A stretch of 64,000 bases of DNA from Candidatus Bathyarchaeia archaeon (GTDB lineage Archaea; Thermoproteota; Bathyarchaeia; TCS64): the NCBI GenBank assembly GCA_050014495.1, contig JBEKDF010000009.1, forward strand, positions 22,850 to 86,849, read 5' to 3'. The number at the start of each line of letters is the position of its first letter. The stretch's first letter is position 1. The translations under genes were made by a program, and so were the position numbers. Shown here in pieces: positions 6,181 through 15,583 of the stretch. The notes under the pieces are model-generated. The model was not told the origin of the DNA. It worked only from the letters and a program-made list of their open reading frames with translations, and did not search any database.

Positions 6181-6943
6181 TTGTGCGGGTAGTGAGTTTG
6201 GGCTCACCACGGATAACCTTGACCATCTCAACGGCTTCTTTCACAGCTTCATCCTCGCCATCGAGGAGGAATATCTTGGCCCCCTCAGCTCCGTCAATTC
6301 CTCCGCCGCCGATTGGGACAACATCGACTCCGAAGAGCTCCTTGAATGCCTCCATTTCGGTGATTATATAACCGCCTATGACCATTATTCCACACTTTAC
6401 GTCTAGAGCAGTATCAATCTTCATGATGCCCATTCTATTAACAGCGTCTGTAAGGTTGATTGGTACGAGCTTCTCTAGGCCCGCGGCGATTATTGTTGTT
6501 ATACCGTTACTTGTGAGGTAACCCCAGGCTGCTCCTATCGTGCCCCCACCGATTCCTCCGAGGAGGATACCAGCCTGACCAAAGGGATCGATAGCGTTGG
6601 CGCCCTTGATGAAGACATCACCCGGCCCCATCTCCTTGAGAATGTCGGGGAGTTCGGGTACCTTAACTGTCTTCACCTTTCCCTTCTGGATGACCGTGTG
6701 GTCACCGCGTCCTTTTGCCTCAGTTATTTGAAGCCCATCCTTAGTGACGACACCAGCAGTAAACATCCCCTTTTCCTTAATCTCCTTCCCCAGGAGTTCC
6801 TCGAGAACATAGGCGTTAGTCGTGCTCGTGGCAATTATGACCGTGCCATTCTCCTTTGCGAGTTTGACGATCTCCATGTGACCTATCGCTTTAGCGATGA
6901 GTCTCTTCCCTTCTGAGGGGGTGAGAACTACCTCAGCTAACAA
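6167..6943 (-). CDS. Conserved hypothetical protein (NagB/RpiA/CoA-transferase-like fold)
   Basis: LTPSEGKRLIAK, DVFIKGANAID and GGTIG are conserved-looking motifs. Confidence 0.6.
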   Translation of the reverse strand: MLAEVVLTPSEGKRLIAKAIGHMEIVKLAKENGTVIIATSTTNAYVLEELLGKEIKEKGMFTAGVVTKDGLQITEAKGRGDHTVIQKGKVKTVKVPELPDILKEMGPGDVFIKGANAIDPFGQAGILLGGIGGGTIGAAWGYLTSNGITTIIAAGLEKLVPINLTDAVNRMGIMKIDTALDVKCGIMVIGGYIITEMEAFKELFGVDVVPIGGGGIDGAEGAKIFLLDGEDEAVKEAVEMVKVIRGEPKLTTRTIKQK

Positions 6944-7205
6944 GTTTAATCCTCCGATTCTTATGGTAGCCTCCGAGGGTTCTGTTTAAAAACTTAGCTA
7001 AACTAAGGAGGGTTTAACGGCAGCTATAAACCGCTATGACTAGGTAAAGGACTCATAATACGTAATTCGAATAATAATATCACATATTACGGTGATGGAC
7101 TGGACGGAATCGTAGGCTTATTGATGAATACTGGAAATGACACTCCTGACCTTTGGGGTTTTTAACTGGTGCTTGTAAAGTAGTGCAGGATACAACACAT
7201 TAGCG

Positions 7206-8245: not shown

Positions 8246-8530
8246 GTGATGTTTGGAATGAGTGCATCGAACTCCGTCGCGAGGGTTTTCTCCCTTCCTA
8301 ATTGCAAAAAATGTGAGCAGTTAAAGGAGTGGATGAAGGAGTGTCATGTGCCCTTCGAAGCGAAGTGGTTTGACACGGAGGCACAGACAGAGTTTGTAAT
8401 GAGAAACATGTTCGGGAACCCACCTATACTCGAGGTGGGGAAGCGATGTGTGTCGTCGGAGGAGATGTTTCCCGGCGGGGTGCTAAGCGAGGGCATAGTG
8501 AGGGATTTGCTGAATGTTAAAGAGGGGTAG
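8246..8530 (+). CDS. Glutaredoxin/NrdH-like redoxin
   Basis: FSLPNCKKCEQLK CxxC motif and cis-Pro PPIL; overlaps the nrdD start. Confidence 0.85.
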   Translation: MMFGMSASNSVARVFSLPNCKKCEQLKEWMKECHVPFEAKWFDTEAQTEFVMRNMFGNPPILEVGKRCVSSEEMFPGGVLSEGIVRDLLNVKEG

Positions 8531-10775
8531 GGATCTTCCCGAGGGGCAGACGTTCATAGACCAGTTCTACAAGTCGGAGCGCCTCTACAAGGGAATGCCA
8601 ATGGTGCGCACCACCGACGGTTACCTTGTAGAGTGGAACAAGGCGAGAATAGTGGAACAGCTCGTGAGGGAAACTGAGCTCGCGGAAACGATGTTCGGGA
8701 TAAAACCCATTAGCATTATGAGGGCTGAGAAGCTGAGTCAGGAGGTTGAGAAGCGTATTAGGCTCATTAAGCCTAAGGTCGTCTCGGGCCCTATGGTTAG
8801 GGAAATCACGAATAATGTCCTACTCGAGTGGAGCGAGTCCGAGAACGCGCCAGAGCTCCAAGTGTACAGGAATATACTGACACGTGTCGGTGTCCCCGTT
8901 GTGGATGCATACGAGATCGATACTGGCTCTGGATTTGAGGCGAAGGAGAACGCTAACCTCCAGCCTAACCCGGAGACGGTGCATAAGAAGAAGGCGGACA
9001 GACTCTCTAAGGAGCAGTACCTGCTGCTAATGGACCCTACGCTGGCGACGGCTCACCACCAGGGTGACATCCATATACATACACTGGAGTATTTTGGTTC
9101 CCGACCCTTCTGCCAGGACTGGGACCTCAGGTACTTCCTCTATTACGGTCTTATCCCTGATGGTAGTGGGTTCAGGAGCAGTGTGGCTGGTCCAGCAAAG
9201 CAACCTGAGGTGGCGATACTCCACAGCGTGAAGGTATTGGCCGCTGGGCAGACGAACTTTAGTGGCGGCCAGGGCTTCATGTACTATACGATGTTCCTCG
9301 CGCCTTTCCTCAGGGGGCTACCCTACGAGAGGGTGAAGCAGCTCGCCCAGATGATGTTCTATGAGTTGACACAGACATATGTGACGCGTGGAGGGCAGCT
9401 TGTATTCAGTAATATCCAGTTGCCGATGGGTGTGCCGAAGATCTGGCAGAATGTTCCCGTCGTAATGAAGGGACGCGTAGGTCCGGACACATACGGGAGC
9501 TACGAGGATGAGGTGCAGACCTTCTTCCGTGCTATCACGGAGGTGGCACTTGAGGGGGACTACTGGGGGAAACCCTTCAACTTCCCGAAGAACGAGAACT
9601 ATGTCTCACCCGAGTTCTTCAAGCCAGAGTACGATGACCTCTGGATGCTCGTCCACGAGTCTGTGAGCAAGTTTGGGGCACCCTACTTCGACAACATGCT
9701 TCCAACATACCGTGGCTACGGTAACGGCATAAGCTGCTACCAATGCTGCGCTTACCAATTCGCGAACACGCCAGAGACTGACCCCAAGTTCAATGAGAAG
9801 CTATACTTTGAGGGTGGTCAGCATTTCAGCATGGGCGGATGGCAGGTCGTGAGCCTAAACATGCCTAGGCTGGCCTACCGCGCCAACGGTGACTACGATA
9901 AGCTTCTGGAAGCGGCGCAGGAGAACATGCGGATGGCCGTAGACGTCTTCAAGACGAAGCAGCACTGGATGAAAAAGTCCCTCGCCAATAATATGGTGCC
10001 ATTCGCGACACAGACACCCAGAGATCCACACACGGGTGAGCTGGGGCCGCCAGCCGTTGACTTCTCCGAGCTCGTGAATGTCATAGGCGTCGTGGGAGTC
10101 AACGAAATGGTTCAGCACTTCACGGGTAAGCAGCTCCATGAGGACCCGGACTCTGTGCGCCTCGCTATACGGCTCCTGCTCGACATGGAGAAGTATAGGA
10201 AGGGACTCGAGATGAGGAACGGGTTCAAGATAATGTTGGCGCGTACACCAGCTGAATCGACAGCACAAACCTTCGCTATCAGTGACCTCGTCTCTCCCAC
10301 CTACAAGAAGTACGCCATCAACACAGTTAAGGGAGACCTGGAAGGGGCAGCAGCGCTGGTGAAGGGAAAGAGAGACCTCCCAGTATACTACAGCAATGGT
10401 ACACACACCTATGTAGGGGCGAAAATACCCCTGGGGACGAAGATCGACATCGAGCATAAATTCTTCCCAATATTAAGTGGCGGGAACATCTTCCACGCCT
10501 GGCTCGGCGAGGCGTGCAGCGATCCGGAGGCACTCTACAAGCTGACTCAGCGCATCTGCAGGAACAGCCAGATCGGATACTTCAGCTACACAAAGGACTT
10601 GACGGTGTGTAGTAAGTGTGCTAGCACGTCGCCGGGAATGCTGAAGATGTGTCCATCATGTGGTTCCGAGAACGTGCGCTGGTGGAGTAGAATCACCGGC
10701 TACTACACGGATGTGACTGGGTGGAACGAGGGCAAGCGCCAGGAACTCATGGACCGCTACCGCGTCACCATCTAA
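8514..10775 (+). CDS. nrdD: Class III anaerobic ribonucleotide reductase with ATP cone
   Basis: ATP cone, GDIHIH, QTNFSGGQ, YQCC finger loop, C-terminal CxxC..CxxC and SRITGYY glycyl-radical motif. Confidence 0.95.
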   Translation: MLKRGRDLPEGQTFIDQFYKSERLYKGMPMVRTTDGYLVEWNKARIVEQLVRETELAETMFGIKPISIMRAEKLSQEVEKRIRLIKPKVVSGPMVREITNNVLLEWSESENAPELQVYRNILTRVGVPVVDAYEIDTGSGFEAKENANLQPNPETVHKKKADRLSKEQYLLLMDPTLATAHHQGDIHIHTLEYFGSRPFCQDWDLRYFLYYGLIPDGSGFRSSVAGPAKQPEVAILHSVKVLAAGQTNFSGGQGFMYYTMFLAPFLRGLPYERVKQLAQMMFYELTQTYVTRGGQLVFSNIQLPMGVPKIWQNVPVVMKGRVGPDTYGSYEDEVQTFFRAITEVALEGDYWGKPFNFPKNENYVSPEFFKPEYDDLWMLVHESVSKFGAPYFDNMLPTYRGYGNGISCYQCCAYQFANTPETDPKFNEKLYFEGGQHFSMGGWQVVSLNMPRLAYRANGDYDKLLEAAQENMRMAVDVFKTKQHWMKKSLANNMVPFATQTPRDPHTGELGPPAVDFSELVNVIGVVGVNEMVQHFTGKQLHEDPDSVRLAIRLLLDMEKYRKGLEMRNGFKIMLARTPAESTAQTFAISDLVSPTYKKYAINTVKGDLEGAAALVKGKRDLPVYYSNGTHTYVGAKIPLGTKIDIEHKFFPILSGGNIFHAWLGEACSDPEALYKLTQRICRNSQIGYFSYTKDLTVCSKCASTSPGMLKMCPSCGSENVRWWSRITGYYTDVTGWNEGKRQELMDRYRVTI

Positions 10776-13546: not shown

Positions 13547-13873
13547 TTACTCTTCTTCCTTCTTCTTCTTAACGGGCTTCTTTGCCTCGACTTCCTCATC
13601 CTTACGGATGCTTATGGCGATTGTGGAGACGTTCCTCTTCCCGCCGTCCTGCCCCTCGAGCTCCTCGGTTCCGATCTCTATCTCCGGCTTGCTCAACCCC
13701 GCAATGAAGCGGTTTCTGCAGACCTCAGTTACGTCAACTGCCGTACTTATCGCCTGACCTCTCGCCTTGAGTACTACGCCGTCCGCTCCCTTCTGGTTGA
13801 AGGCTGTCAGAACCGCCATTACGTAGGTCATTACAGGTTTACTGCCGATGTAGATTATGCTGTCCTCTGTCAT
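13547..13873 (-). CDS. albA: DNA/RNA-binding protein Alba
   Basis: IYIGSKPVMTYV...KARGQAISTAVDV...RNVSTIAI. Confidence 0.95.
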   Translation of the reverse strand: MTEDSIIYIGSKPVMTYVMAVLTAFNQKGADGVVLKARGQAISTAVDVTEVCRNRFIAGLSKPEIEIGTEELEGQDGGKRNVSTIAISIRKDEEVEAKKPVKKKKEEE

Positions 13874-13942: not shown

Positions 13943-14440
13943 TTAATCTATGCTGAGTAGCTGGTCGAGCAGAAGATGGTCGTGGGAAGCTGGACTCCTC
14001 CAACCCTCCTTATAATTAAAATCATACTCCCTTGTATAATCACGAACGAAGCATATCGTCGGATCGCCCTTCACACTACCCCTCTTAAAATCCACCTCAT
14101 AATCATTCATCAGGTCGCATACCTCCCACTGATCCCTAAACATCGAATCGGAGACAACAAGAGGGATCTTTGAGTAACCTGAGGCGTTCAGCACTCGCCT
14201 CCTCCTCTTACCATATTGATAAAGGTCTTCGCCACTCCTAATAGAGATGGGGTGATGCTCCCAAAACACCTTGCCCAGAGGGAAAAAGTCGAAATTATAT
14301 CTCCCGATTTGGTATTCATGGTTCATCTCTTTTGGGGTTAAGCCCAGCCACTGCAGATACCTGAAACACTGGACCTCCTGATAGCTCACGAACCTTTCCC
14401 CCCAGATAACGTAACCAGTGTCGTCTCTGAGTATTTTCAT
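13943..14440 (-). CDS. Hypothetical protein, possible PD-(D/E)XK-like nuclease
   Basis: S..E, HEYQIGRYNFDFF and FWEHHP resemble DUF559/Vsr-like motifs. Confidence 0.45.
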   Translation of the reverse strand: MKILRDDTGYVIWGERFVSYQEVQCFRYLQWLGLTPKEMNHEYQIGRYNFDFFPLGKVFWEHHPISIRSGEDLYQYGKRRRRVLNASGYSKIPLVVSDSMFRDQWEVCDLMNDYEVDFKRGSVKGDPTICFVRDYTREYDFNYKEGWRSPASHDHLLLDQLLSID

Positions 14441-14805
14441 ATGATCACCACCGAAAGTATTTCGGAGGCGCGAGGAGCGAGGAGAATAGTGTGTATGAAG
14501 AGGTACTGGGCGTTCTCGCTCAGCTTCAGGGTGGTATATCCTCCCGCCTTAAACAGATCTAGGGATCATTGGAGATAACATTTACCTATTCTCGGAAAGG
14601 CTGTTATTGTGAAAAAAACTAATAAAGAAATTCGGTGGCTTCGTAATAACTTTAAATGGAGTGTATAAACTGGATATTGTTTAGATATAAGGAGACGTTC
14701 TTGATTAGTATGTGTCAATTATAAGGGATAGAACTTAGGCACAGCATAATACTTGTCACAGGGGTGCATCATAAGTCTAAATACTTTACACGCAGATGTT
14801 AACTC

Positions 14806-14937
14806 TGCCCAAGCAACAGCGACCGGGGATCGAAAAGGCGTGAAGAATCCCGGAGCTGACTCGGAACGGTGGGCCTAAAGGCTCTAGGGGCTTAGGCTTC
14901 AAGAGACCTCACCGTGAAGAGGAGAAATGCTTGGGCA
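14806..14937 (+). ncRNA. Unidentified structured RNA with a K-turn
   Basis: 10-bp closing stem TGCCCAAGCA/TGCTTGGGCA, two internal arms, canonical K-turn, TATA-like CTAAATA ~25 nt upstream and a T-rich tail. Confidence 0.7.
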
Positions 14938-15130
14938 CCTTATTTCTTCGAAAATCATCTCACTGAAAGTATCTACACTGTGTCGTCCTCAGCACTGACG
15001 TAAACATGACTTGCTTCTTCGCTAATTGACGAAAATCCATCCTTTACACATGTGATACGAAGACAATAAGAGAGTACAAGGTTATGCGTCACTAGTAATC
15101 GTTAAAGCCAGTATATCCACCCTTAGACCC

Positions 15131-15583
15131 ATGTCGATTGAAGCAAAGTTAAAGAAGCTAGGACTCGAGCTACCCTCCCCTCCCAACTACAAGGGTAACT
15201 ACATCGGTGCTAAGTGGGCTAATAACATAGCATTCAGTTGCGGACAGGGTCCATTCGATAAGACGAAGAGAGGCATGGTGGGTAAGGAGCTCACTCTCGA
15301 TGAGGGCTACAAGGCAGCCCAGGAGGTTGGCCTCAACTGCCTCTCACAATTAAAAAGGCAGCTCGGGAGCCTCGATAGGATCAAGCAGATCCTCCAAGTT
15401 ATTGGCTTTGTCAATAGCGCTGACGGATTTATGGATCAGCCAAAAGTTCTTAATGGCTTCACAGATCTTCTCGTGAATCTTTACGGTGATCCCGAGGGGA
15501 AGCCAGCGAGAGCAGCGATCCCACTCCATCACCCTGGGTGGGTTGCAGTCGAGGCGTGGATGGTTGTTGAGCTCAAGGAGTAG
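15131..15583 (+). CDS. RidA/YjgF-family protein
   Basis: IEAKLKKLGLELP, GFVNSADGFMDQPKVLNG.TDL, PARAAI. Confidence 0.9.
   Translation: MSIEAKLKKLGLELPSPPNYKGNYIGAKWANNIAFSCGQGPFDKTKRGMVGKELTLDEGYKAAQEVGLNCLSQLKRQLGSLDRIKQILQVIGFVNSADGFMDQPKVLNGFTDLLVNLYGDPEGKPARAAIPLHHPGWVAVEAWMVVELKE

Follow-up and report, generated by a model that had tools for sequence, protein, structure and literature searches.

A pseudoknotted RNA class of Bathyarchaeia shares a hairpin and an upstream element with a second RNA family

Results

A new class of structured RNA

The 132 nucleotides at positions 14806-14937 of the window (the whole 64,000-nucleotide stretch of a Candidatus Bathyarchaeia contig analysed here) hold the short form of a real, new RNA class, which we call family A. 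Its members fold as a pseudoknotted three-way junction, occur as paralogues, and have in common with a second family, B, both an element upstream of the gene and a near-invariant hairpin, while the distribution of A is complementary to that of canonical B. Both families are uncatalogued. The earlier note on this DNA had proposed an independently encoded, uncatalogued structured RNA that forms a kink-turn RNP with L7Ae. The first part is upheld by promoter and terminator signals and by covariation, the kink-turn and L7Ae part is not, and the pseudoknot, the paralogues, the distal double-palindrome and the hairpin common to family B were absent from that account. The features of the locus are as follows.

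14677-14721, no strand assigned: distal double-palindrome, predicted transcription-factor site (seed motif and matrix)
14753-14783, + strand: core promoter region with TTG near -53 and TATA-like CTAAATA at 14777-14783 (column counts over 128 upstream regions)
14806-14937, + strand: family A RNA, short form, 132 nt, three-way junction with pseudoknot (fold against shuffles, covariance model)
14806-14815, + strand: 5' strand of P1, pairing with 14928-14937 (99.2% of cells paired, two-sided changes in 5/10 pairs)
14817-14858, + strand: arm 1, with P2 (14817-14820/14855-14858), P3 (14823-14831/14845-14853) and loop L3 (14832-14844)
14836-14876, + strand: pseudoknot between AGGC of L3 (14836-14839) and the bulge GCCT (14873-14876)
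14860-14921, + strand: arm 2, with P4 (14860-14862/14919-14921), P5 (14866-14871/14910-14915) and P6-P7
14889-14898, + strand: near-invariant hairpin GGC-UUAG-GCU (G.U, G-C, C-G; UUWG loop), predicted protein-binding site
14938-14948, + strand: pyrimidine/T-rich 3' run, predicted terminator (T 84-89% at +8 to +10, 122 loci)
13943-14440, - strand: divergent 165-aa ORF with a weak PD-(D/E)xK-nuclease-like lead, adjoining the same intergenic region and not a fixed partner
15131-15583, + strand: RidA/YjgF-like gene (PF14588), a variable neighbour that is not part of the system

The plus strand folds with an energy of -60.1 kcal/mol (z -5.29), and 0/200 shuffles folded as well. Since the minus strand of the same stretch also folds strongly (z -4.77), the strand was assigned from the conserved upstream TATA and the downstream T-run. 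Several elements that the earlier note had drawn are indeed there, including the 10-bp pairing of P1, arm 2 and the stem of its third arm (14866-14871/14910-14915), the TATA-like CTAAATA and the T-rich run after the 3' end. Its statement that the RNA holds no ORF was borne out (none of at least 60 aa within 14440-15131), no tRNA was found in the same interval, and the genome's 5S, SRP and RNase P RNAs each sit elsewhere, above cut-off. The Rfam covariance models, run on the window, gave no match at the gathering score and none at E<=10. For six loci of other family A members Rfam 15 returned only an unrelated tRNA and a sub-threshold match on the opposite strand, with 25.4 bits against a cut-off of 50. 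Resemblances to the glycine and ZTP riboswitches, SRP Alu loops, the tRNA-Ala acceptor stem and the L11 region were dropped for want of Rfam or profile support.

Promoter, terminator and genomic setting

The signals around the RNA recur across the family. Among the 128 upstream regions, A reaches 85% at -38 and -33 (BRE-like) and T 77% at -1, and A/T-rich, TATA-like bases at -27 to -23 recur across paralogues. The downstream gene lies on the same strand in 101 loci and on the opposite strand in 78, and we rejected a riboswitch or cis-acting leader because downstream genes are found in either orientation.

The copies are dispersed, each with the 10-bp P1 as a terminal inverted repeat, and the genome has TnpB-domain genes, all of which would fit a mobile element, whether a non-autonomous MITE or an orphan TnpB/IS605 guide RNA such as the earlier note had allowed for. 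This reading is largely refuted, and we regard it as exceedingly unlikely. The inverted repeat shows the compensatory changes of an RNA helix, and the promoter and terminator signals lie outside it. A MITE was rejected because there are no target-site duplications (flanking duplications are at chance, 7/131 at 2 nt and 0/131 at >=5 nt), the paralogues within this genome are only 50-86% identical, and covariation is internal; moreover, the window locus keeps its orthologous position across the genus. An omega-RNA was rejected because the neighbours have no tnpB link and the 3' flank is constant rather than variable. The TnpB domain was not found in 3/4 carrier genomes tested, no model match lies beside three tnpB loci of this genome, and viral contigs yielded 0 matches to the family A pattern.

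Covariation and the fold

The structure was tested on 53 sequences. With the 43-pair model, which was derived from these same sequences, 90.5% of cells are paired against 77.0 when shuffled. The covariation sought among collected homologues was found, with two-sided changes at 29 pairs, and the covariation score was 0.367 against 0.154 for the shuffled and <=0.099 for the slid control, a comparison in which the structure, derived from the same sequences, is favoured over the slid control. These compensatory changes support a predicted three-way junction with a loop-bulge pseudoknot in family A. Its layout consists of P1, a P2-P3 arm with a 12-13-nt loop, and a P4-P5-P6-P7 arm ending in the UUWG tetraloop. 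The pseudoknot joins the P3 loop to the bulge after P5 and is 4 bp long in the window copy and 5 bp in most family members; its pairs are 95.5% paired, with two-sided changes in 3/5, and all five positions are complementary in 178/200 members against 79.7 (maximum 97) in 1000 permutations.

The kink-turn of the earlier note had been drawn in what is now the variable internal loop of arm 2. The pattern, a 3-nt bulge followed by tandem G.A/A.G pairs (PMC5435971), does fit the window copy, and both GA steps are retained in close orthologues, so that an L7Ae-bound kink-turn RNP might be considered at least for the window subfamily. However, the Watson-Crick C-stem with its 3-nt bulge occurs in only 1/9 distinct orthologues and in 8/192 parsed members of the family (13/205 family A sequences could not be parsed). 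The outer pair of the kink-turn register is broken in 4/11 orthologues, whereas the P4 register, which pairs CTC with the first GAG and leaves the purine linker single-stranded, is intact in the 10 closest and has two-sided changes in 3/3 pairs. The cap drawn as GCCTAA/TTAGGC is likewise broken outright in 3/11 orthologues, and its bases instead form the pseudoknot and the tetraloop hairpin. We therefore hold an L7Ae RNP, even one confined to this subfamily, to be highly improbable.

Aptamers and small ribozymes typically combine conserved unpaired purines round a junction with a docked pseudoknot, as family A does. Its purine-rich junction, closed by the pseudoknot, could therefore be read as a pocket or active site, in an RNA that binds a ligand or is catalytic and works in trans. 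We find this quite unlikely, as Rfam gave no riboswitch or ribozyme match, there is no expression platform and the downstream gene may have either orientation, the junction bases differ in the window subfamily (ACA instead of GGA/GAA), and the hairpin held in common with family B would be left unexplained.

Distribution and length classes of family A

By BLAST the RNA is single-copy in its genome, with orthologues 70-93% identical in 11/17 other genomes of the genus. A first covariance model, built from the orthologues of the window RNA, gave 68 matches in 43/79 genomes of the order, and a second was built from 53/68 of these after near-duplicates had been dropped. With the second model this genome proved to have four copies, at C9 (the window RNA), C11, C24 and C17, and 51/79 genomes of the order to have 1-6 copies each, counting the five weakest matches, which are partial. 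All carriers belong to five genera of one family, f1 (g1 16/17, g5 4/5, g6 1/1, g8 28/32, g9 1/1), and ten other genera have none. Outside f1, searches under strict filters, in which few candidates were scored for each genome, did not find family A in 122 genomes of the class or in 149 others of the phylum. A pattern scan of metagenomes returned at least 120 loci, 115 with intact P1, adding 82 new sequences; at 52/73 metagenome loci with ORFs, a protein has a counterpart in this genome with at least 50% identity.

The full-length genome hits number 131, of which 101 measure 127-143 nt, 19 measure 166-169 nt and 8 measure 200-208 nt, the other 3 being partial or mis-parsed. The longer forms have one or two extra hairpins between P5 and P4. 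In the long forms (L151, L152, L154, L140, L141, L107, L137) the extra domain includes a small hairpin, looped by GGA/GGAA, that looks like the invariant GGACGC hairpin with which canonical B ends on its 3' side. We also noted deleted or truncated copies (L161:366-478, L163:2501-2590, L158:1247-1375), one of them without the P5-P7 arm, which are probably pseudogenes.

An upstream double-palindrome common to two RNA families

The distal element has the consensus TTGTCcCA-n7-TGnGACgTT followed by CTTaAC-n-CAAaAA. Across all carrier genera it is present at about -130 to -87 in the majority of short-form loci; the window copy has a degenerate first half. The seed motif was found in 76/127 upstream regions. 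At >=15 bits, with a matrix trained only on A promoters, the element precedes 77/101 short, 2/8 long and 0/19 medium copies. In the 3.1-Mb genome the matrix found three sites, and 0 in two shuffles; the sites precede the window RNA, its C11 paralogue and, at C29:7128, a structured leader and a 109-aa ORF. In a looser scan the next matches (17.2, 16.1 and 13.3 bits) were within the shuffle range (maximum 17.8).

Other genomes gave a similar picture. In five genomes without A, the 7 pattern matches comprised 4 free-standing B genes, 1 duplicated operator fragment and 2 unrelated sites, and in five carriers the 8 matches comprised 4 A genes, 2 Myb-like genes, 1 B gene and 1 unrelated site. All free-standing B loci checked (12/12) carry the double-palindrome. 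At one locus (G027:C53, L204/L207) a tandem partial duplication, its copies 458 nt apart, takes in the operator and the beginning of eS1, and may be an assembly artefact. A borderline operator match was also seen upstream of a cluster of six small, apparently winged-helix-like genes that follows a gatE-like gene (L264:3811-6150; G000:C35:9810-12152), where genome G004 has its A copy.

Family B and the UUWG hairpin

Family B either stands free between eS1 and pcc1, as it does in many genera, or lies in the leader of the Myb-like gene (L209:1194-1410 (-), L202-L205, L409-L425; in this genome G000:C29, about 6810-6995 (-)). As a leader it is 138-257 nt long, with a terminal helix that closes 28-40 nt before the start codon. 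Nine family B loci gave no Rfam match at E<=1. Beyond the hairpin, homology between A and B was not detected (best cross-profile E 4.8; best E 1.2 for the A model R2 without filters).

The hairpin pattern GG(S)U-DD-G(S')CU is present in 116/123 A and 27/30 B sequences, against a genome background of 0.6% per 190 nt. In 205 family A sequences the loop is UUUG in 117, UUAG in 76 and something else in 12, and UUCG in 0; that UUCG is never used suggests a loop selected for recognition rather than mere stability. No true match to the hairpin was found in the genome's own 23S, 5S, SRP or RNase P RNA, and three other long matches inspected in the genome all lay in coding sequence.

With a model of the 3' part of the RNA, built from canonical copies only, canonical B was found in 19/21 genomes of the family outside g1 and g8, in 0/17 of g1 and in 1 (weakly) of the 32 of g8. 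Family A, present in 16/17 and 28/32 genomes of these two genera, is expanded where canonical B is missing; as the genomes are related, this pattern represents few events, not dozens. A diverged, hairpin-bearing B is kept in the leader of the Myb-like gene in most of the g1 and g8 loci read, although the hairpin is gone from that leader in this genome. Since diverged B is kept and the model came from canonical copies only, any replacement of B by A is only partial.

In a genome of another family, we noted a 144-nt RNA-like stretch (L428:1472-1615 (+)) that has a terminal helix of 12 bp and in which GGGACGC hairpins recur. It gives a partial match to the B model (E 4e-6) and an insignificant one to the A model (E 1.2), has no operator, and is possibly a distant relative.

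The neighbourhoods of both families could also point to translation. Free-standing B adjoins eS1 in 12/12 and pcc1 in 10/12 loci checked, and the commonest neighbour of A, at 31 loci in g1, g8 and g9, is a 158-aa AlaX-like tRNA-editing gene (for example L063:4012-4488), a neighbourhood that is probably the ancestral A locus. Family A sequences have GUGGGAG at positions 8-14 in 114/205, and in most members the P1/P2 junction resembles the L1-stalk stretch of the genome's own 23S rRNA. This might be expected of an RNA that imitates a piece of rRNA or tRNA so as to contact the ribosome, uL1 or an enzyme of tRNA editing. We consider such a role unlikely. Profile comparison with the genome's own 23S, 5S, SRP and RNase P RNA gave nothing significant (best E 2.3), and a pair matching the position that we take to be the core G-C of the uL1 site is possible in only about 9/53 sequences. 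The window copy is without the GUGGGAG motif, a 3' CCA sought at the ends of family A was absent, and the neighbour counts reflect few inherited loci. For uL1 binding itself, the available passages of PMC2175363 give no nucleotide-level rule.

A Myb/GcrA-like zinc-ribbon gene behind the same element

The 109-aa ORF (L171:6457-6783, -) combines a Myb/GcrA-like helix-turn-helix with a zinc ribbon and is single-copy in 64/79 genomes of the order, with four invariant cysteines. It has no Pfam match over the cut-off. For the N-terminal half, modelling gives a bundle of three helices whose best structural match is the GcrA DNA-binding domain (Z 7.5, rmsd 1.9 over 49 residues), with c-Myb repeats at Z 6.1-6.2, although a Z below 8 may reflect no more than a common fold. 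Atlas matches agree, and the relatives found by profile are Myb/GcrA-repeat proteins. The double-palindrome precedes the gene in 11 genera checked. In genus g10 (0/4) and family f4 (0/3) the gene has no such element, and f4 has the gene without A or B RNA, so the protein and the RNAs are not obligately linked.

Dosage-acting RNAs as the favoured reading

The reading we favour, while giving it somewhat less than an even chance, is that A and B are co-regulated, dosage-acting RNAs that bind a protein in trans through the UUWG hairpin and titrate it by dose. The double-palindrome would be the site of an activator or other transcription factor, and A and B RNAs would be induced together under one signal to act in trans. 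The UUWG hairpin is the predicted docking site, and copy number would set the amount of protein held. The Myb/GcrA-zinc-ribbon protein is the obvious candidate as reader of the operator, as RNA partner, or as both; if we were to guess, it is itself the partner, so that the regulator's RNA outputs would hold the regulator in check, a feedback logic like that of Csr/Rsm- or 6S-type systems.

Promoter signals at a fixed distance and the 3' T-run speak for this titration reading, pointing to an independent gene. Its dosage part draws on the 1-6 diverged paralogues per genome, and its private-regulon part on the single further site of the A-trained matrix, which precedes a leader RNA and the Myb-like gene. 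The hairpin common to two otherwise dissimilar RNAs, the complementary occurrence of A and canonical B, and the GcrA/Myb-type fold modelled for the protein also count in its favour. Against it, each RNA has a single hairpin, whereas classic protein sponges carry many binding sites, and the conserved junction and pseudoknot are more elaborate than the display of a hairpin requires. The 19 medium and 6/8 long copies without a distal element at the threshold used also count against titration, as does the Myb-like gene without element in g10 and f4 and without RNAs in f4.

A related arrangement, to which we give a small chance, is a dedicated non-coding RNA regulon in which the Myb/GcrA-like factor reads the operator and the two RNA families bind back to the factor or to the transcription machinery. 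If true, a promoter used almost only for RNA genes and for the factor's own gene would be an archaeal counterpart of 6S/7SK-type control. Paralogous RNAs under one activator are also known among base-pairing regulators, with Qrr as the example, and the paralogy and common distal element of family A would suit such an sRNA family. We judge this very unlikely, since nearly the whole RNA is held in helices and the pseudoknot with no conserved single-stranded seed, and since complementarity between the four copies and the leader of the Myb-like gene, the only target compared, is 6-7 nt against a shuffle mean of 7.

Titration by family A would make it comparable to known systems. CsrB/Rsm RNA genes have an upstream activator box, and family A resembles them in its several independently encoded paralogues with a common upstream palindrome (in 77/101 short copies) and in a conserved hairpin loop that is likely a protein-docking site. 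Unlike those RNAs with their many GGA loops, a short-form A RNA has one UUWG hairpin, a rigid pseudoknotted three-way junction and an archaeal promoter. Like 6S RNA, family A is stand-alone, 130-200 nt long and possibly acts on a transcription regulator, but it is without the long helix with a central bubble and without an Rfam match. It is lineage-restricted, strongly covarying and pseudoknotted like the raiA motif and OLE RNA, and differs from them in being multi-copy and co-regulated with a second RNA family, with no model match. A small stand-alone RNA whose regulon has a distal activator site also recalls Y RNA, but the P1 of family A is unbulged, and TROVE (Ro60) was not found in 5/5 genomes tested, in a search whose control gave a signal in 2/14. 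To our knowledge, trans-acting archaeal RNA classes are few beyond tRNA, rRNA, SRP, RNase P, modification guides and CRISPR-type RNAs. CsrB/CsrC and RsmX/Y/Z are bacterial protein-sequestering RNAs (PMC5027483), and L7Ae kink-turn RNPs include those of box C/D, H/ACA and RNase P RNAs (PMC5689011, PMC5499556); family A differs from the latter in that the kink-turn pattern, though it fits the window copy, is not conserved, and in having neither C/D boxes nor an ACA tail nor a guide region.

We found no published description of the family A RNA in the literature. The parts seen of the COMPASS preprint (10.64898/2026.10.21.760802), in which intergenic DNA of GTDB was clustered wholesale, never name Bathyarchaeia, and its clusters may hold the RNA unnamed. 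For the new class there are now more than 200 different sequences, a fold backed by covariation and a sister family, besides a candidate operator, a possible 109-aa partner and a 10-nt stretch as candidate binding site. Together these make archaeal control by protein-titrating RNA testable in vitro, with no need to culture the host.

Neighbouring genes

The genes around the window RNA vary. At several orthologous loci a transporter-like ORF in convergent orientation takes the place of the RidA/YjgF-like gene. The 165-aa ORF has no Pfam or NCBIfam match, and its Atlas assignment to DUF559/PvuRts1I-N at high confidence is a lead only. It is present in 32/79 genomes, all in genera g1 and g8, and at the 18 other loci checked no RNA adjoins it. 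Some 190-200 nt upstream of this nuclease-like ORF, several g8 loci have a weak operator-like site but no RNA, and the ORF may belong to the double-palindrome regulon. Also near the RNA are an Alba gene (PF01918) at 13547-13873 and a 753-aa ORF at 8514-10775 that by eye resembles an anaerobic ribonucleotide reductase.
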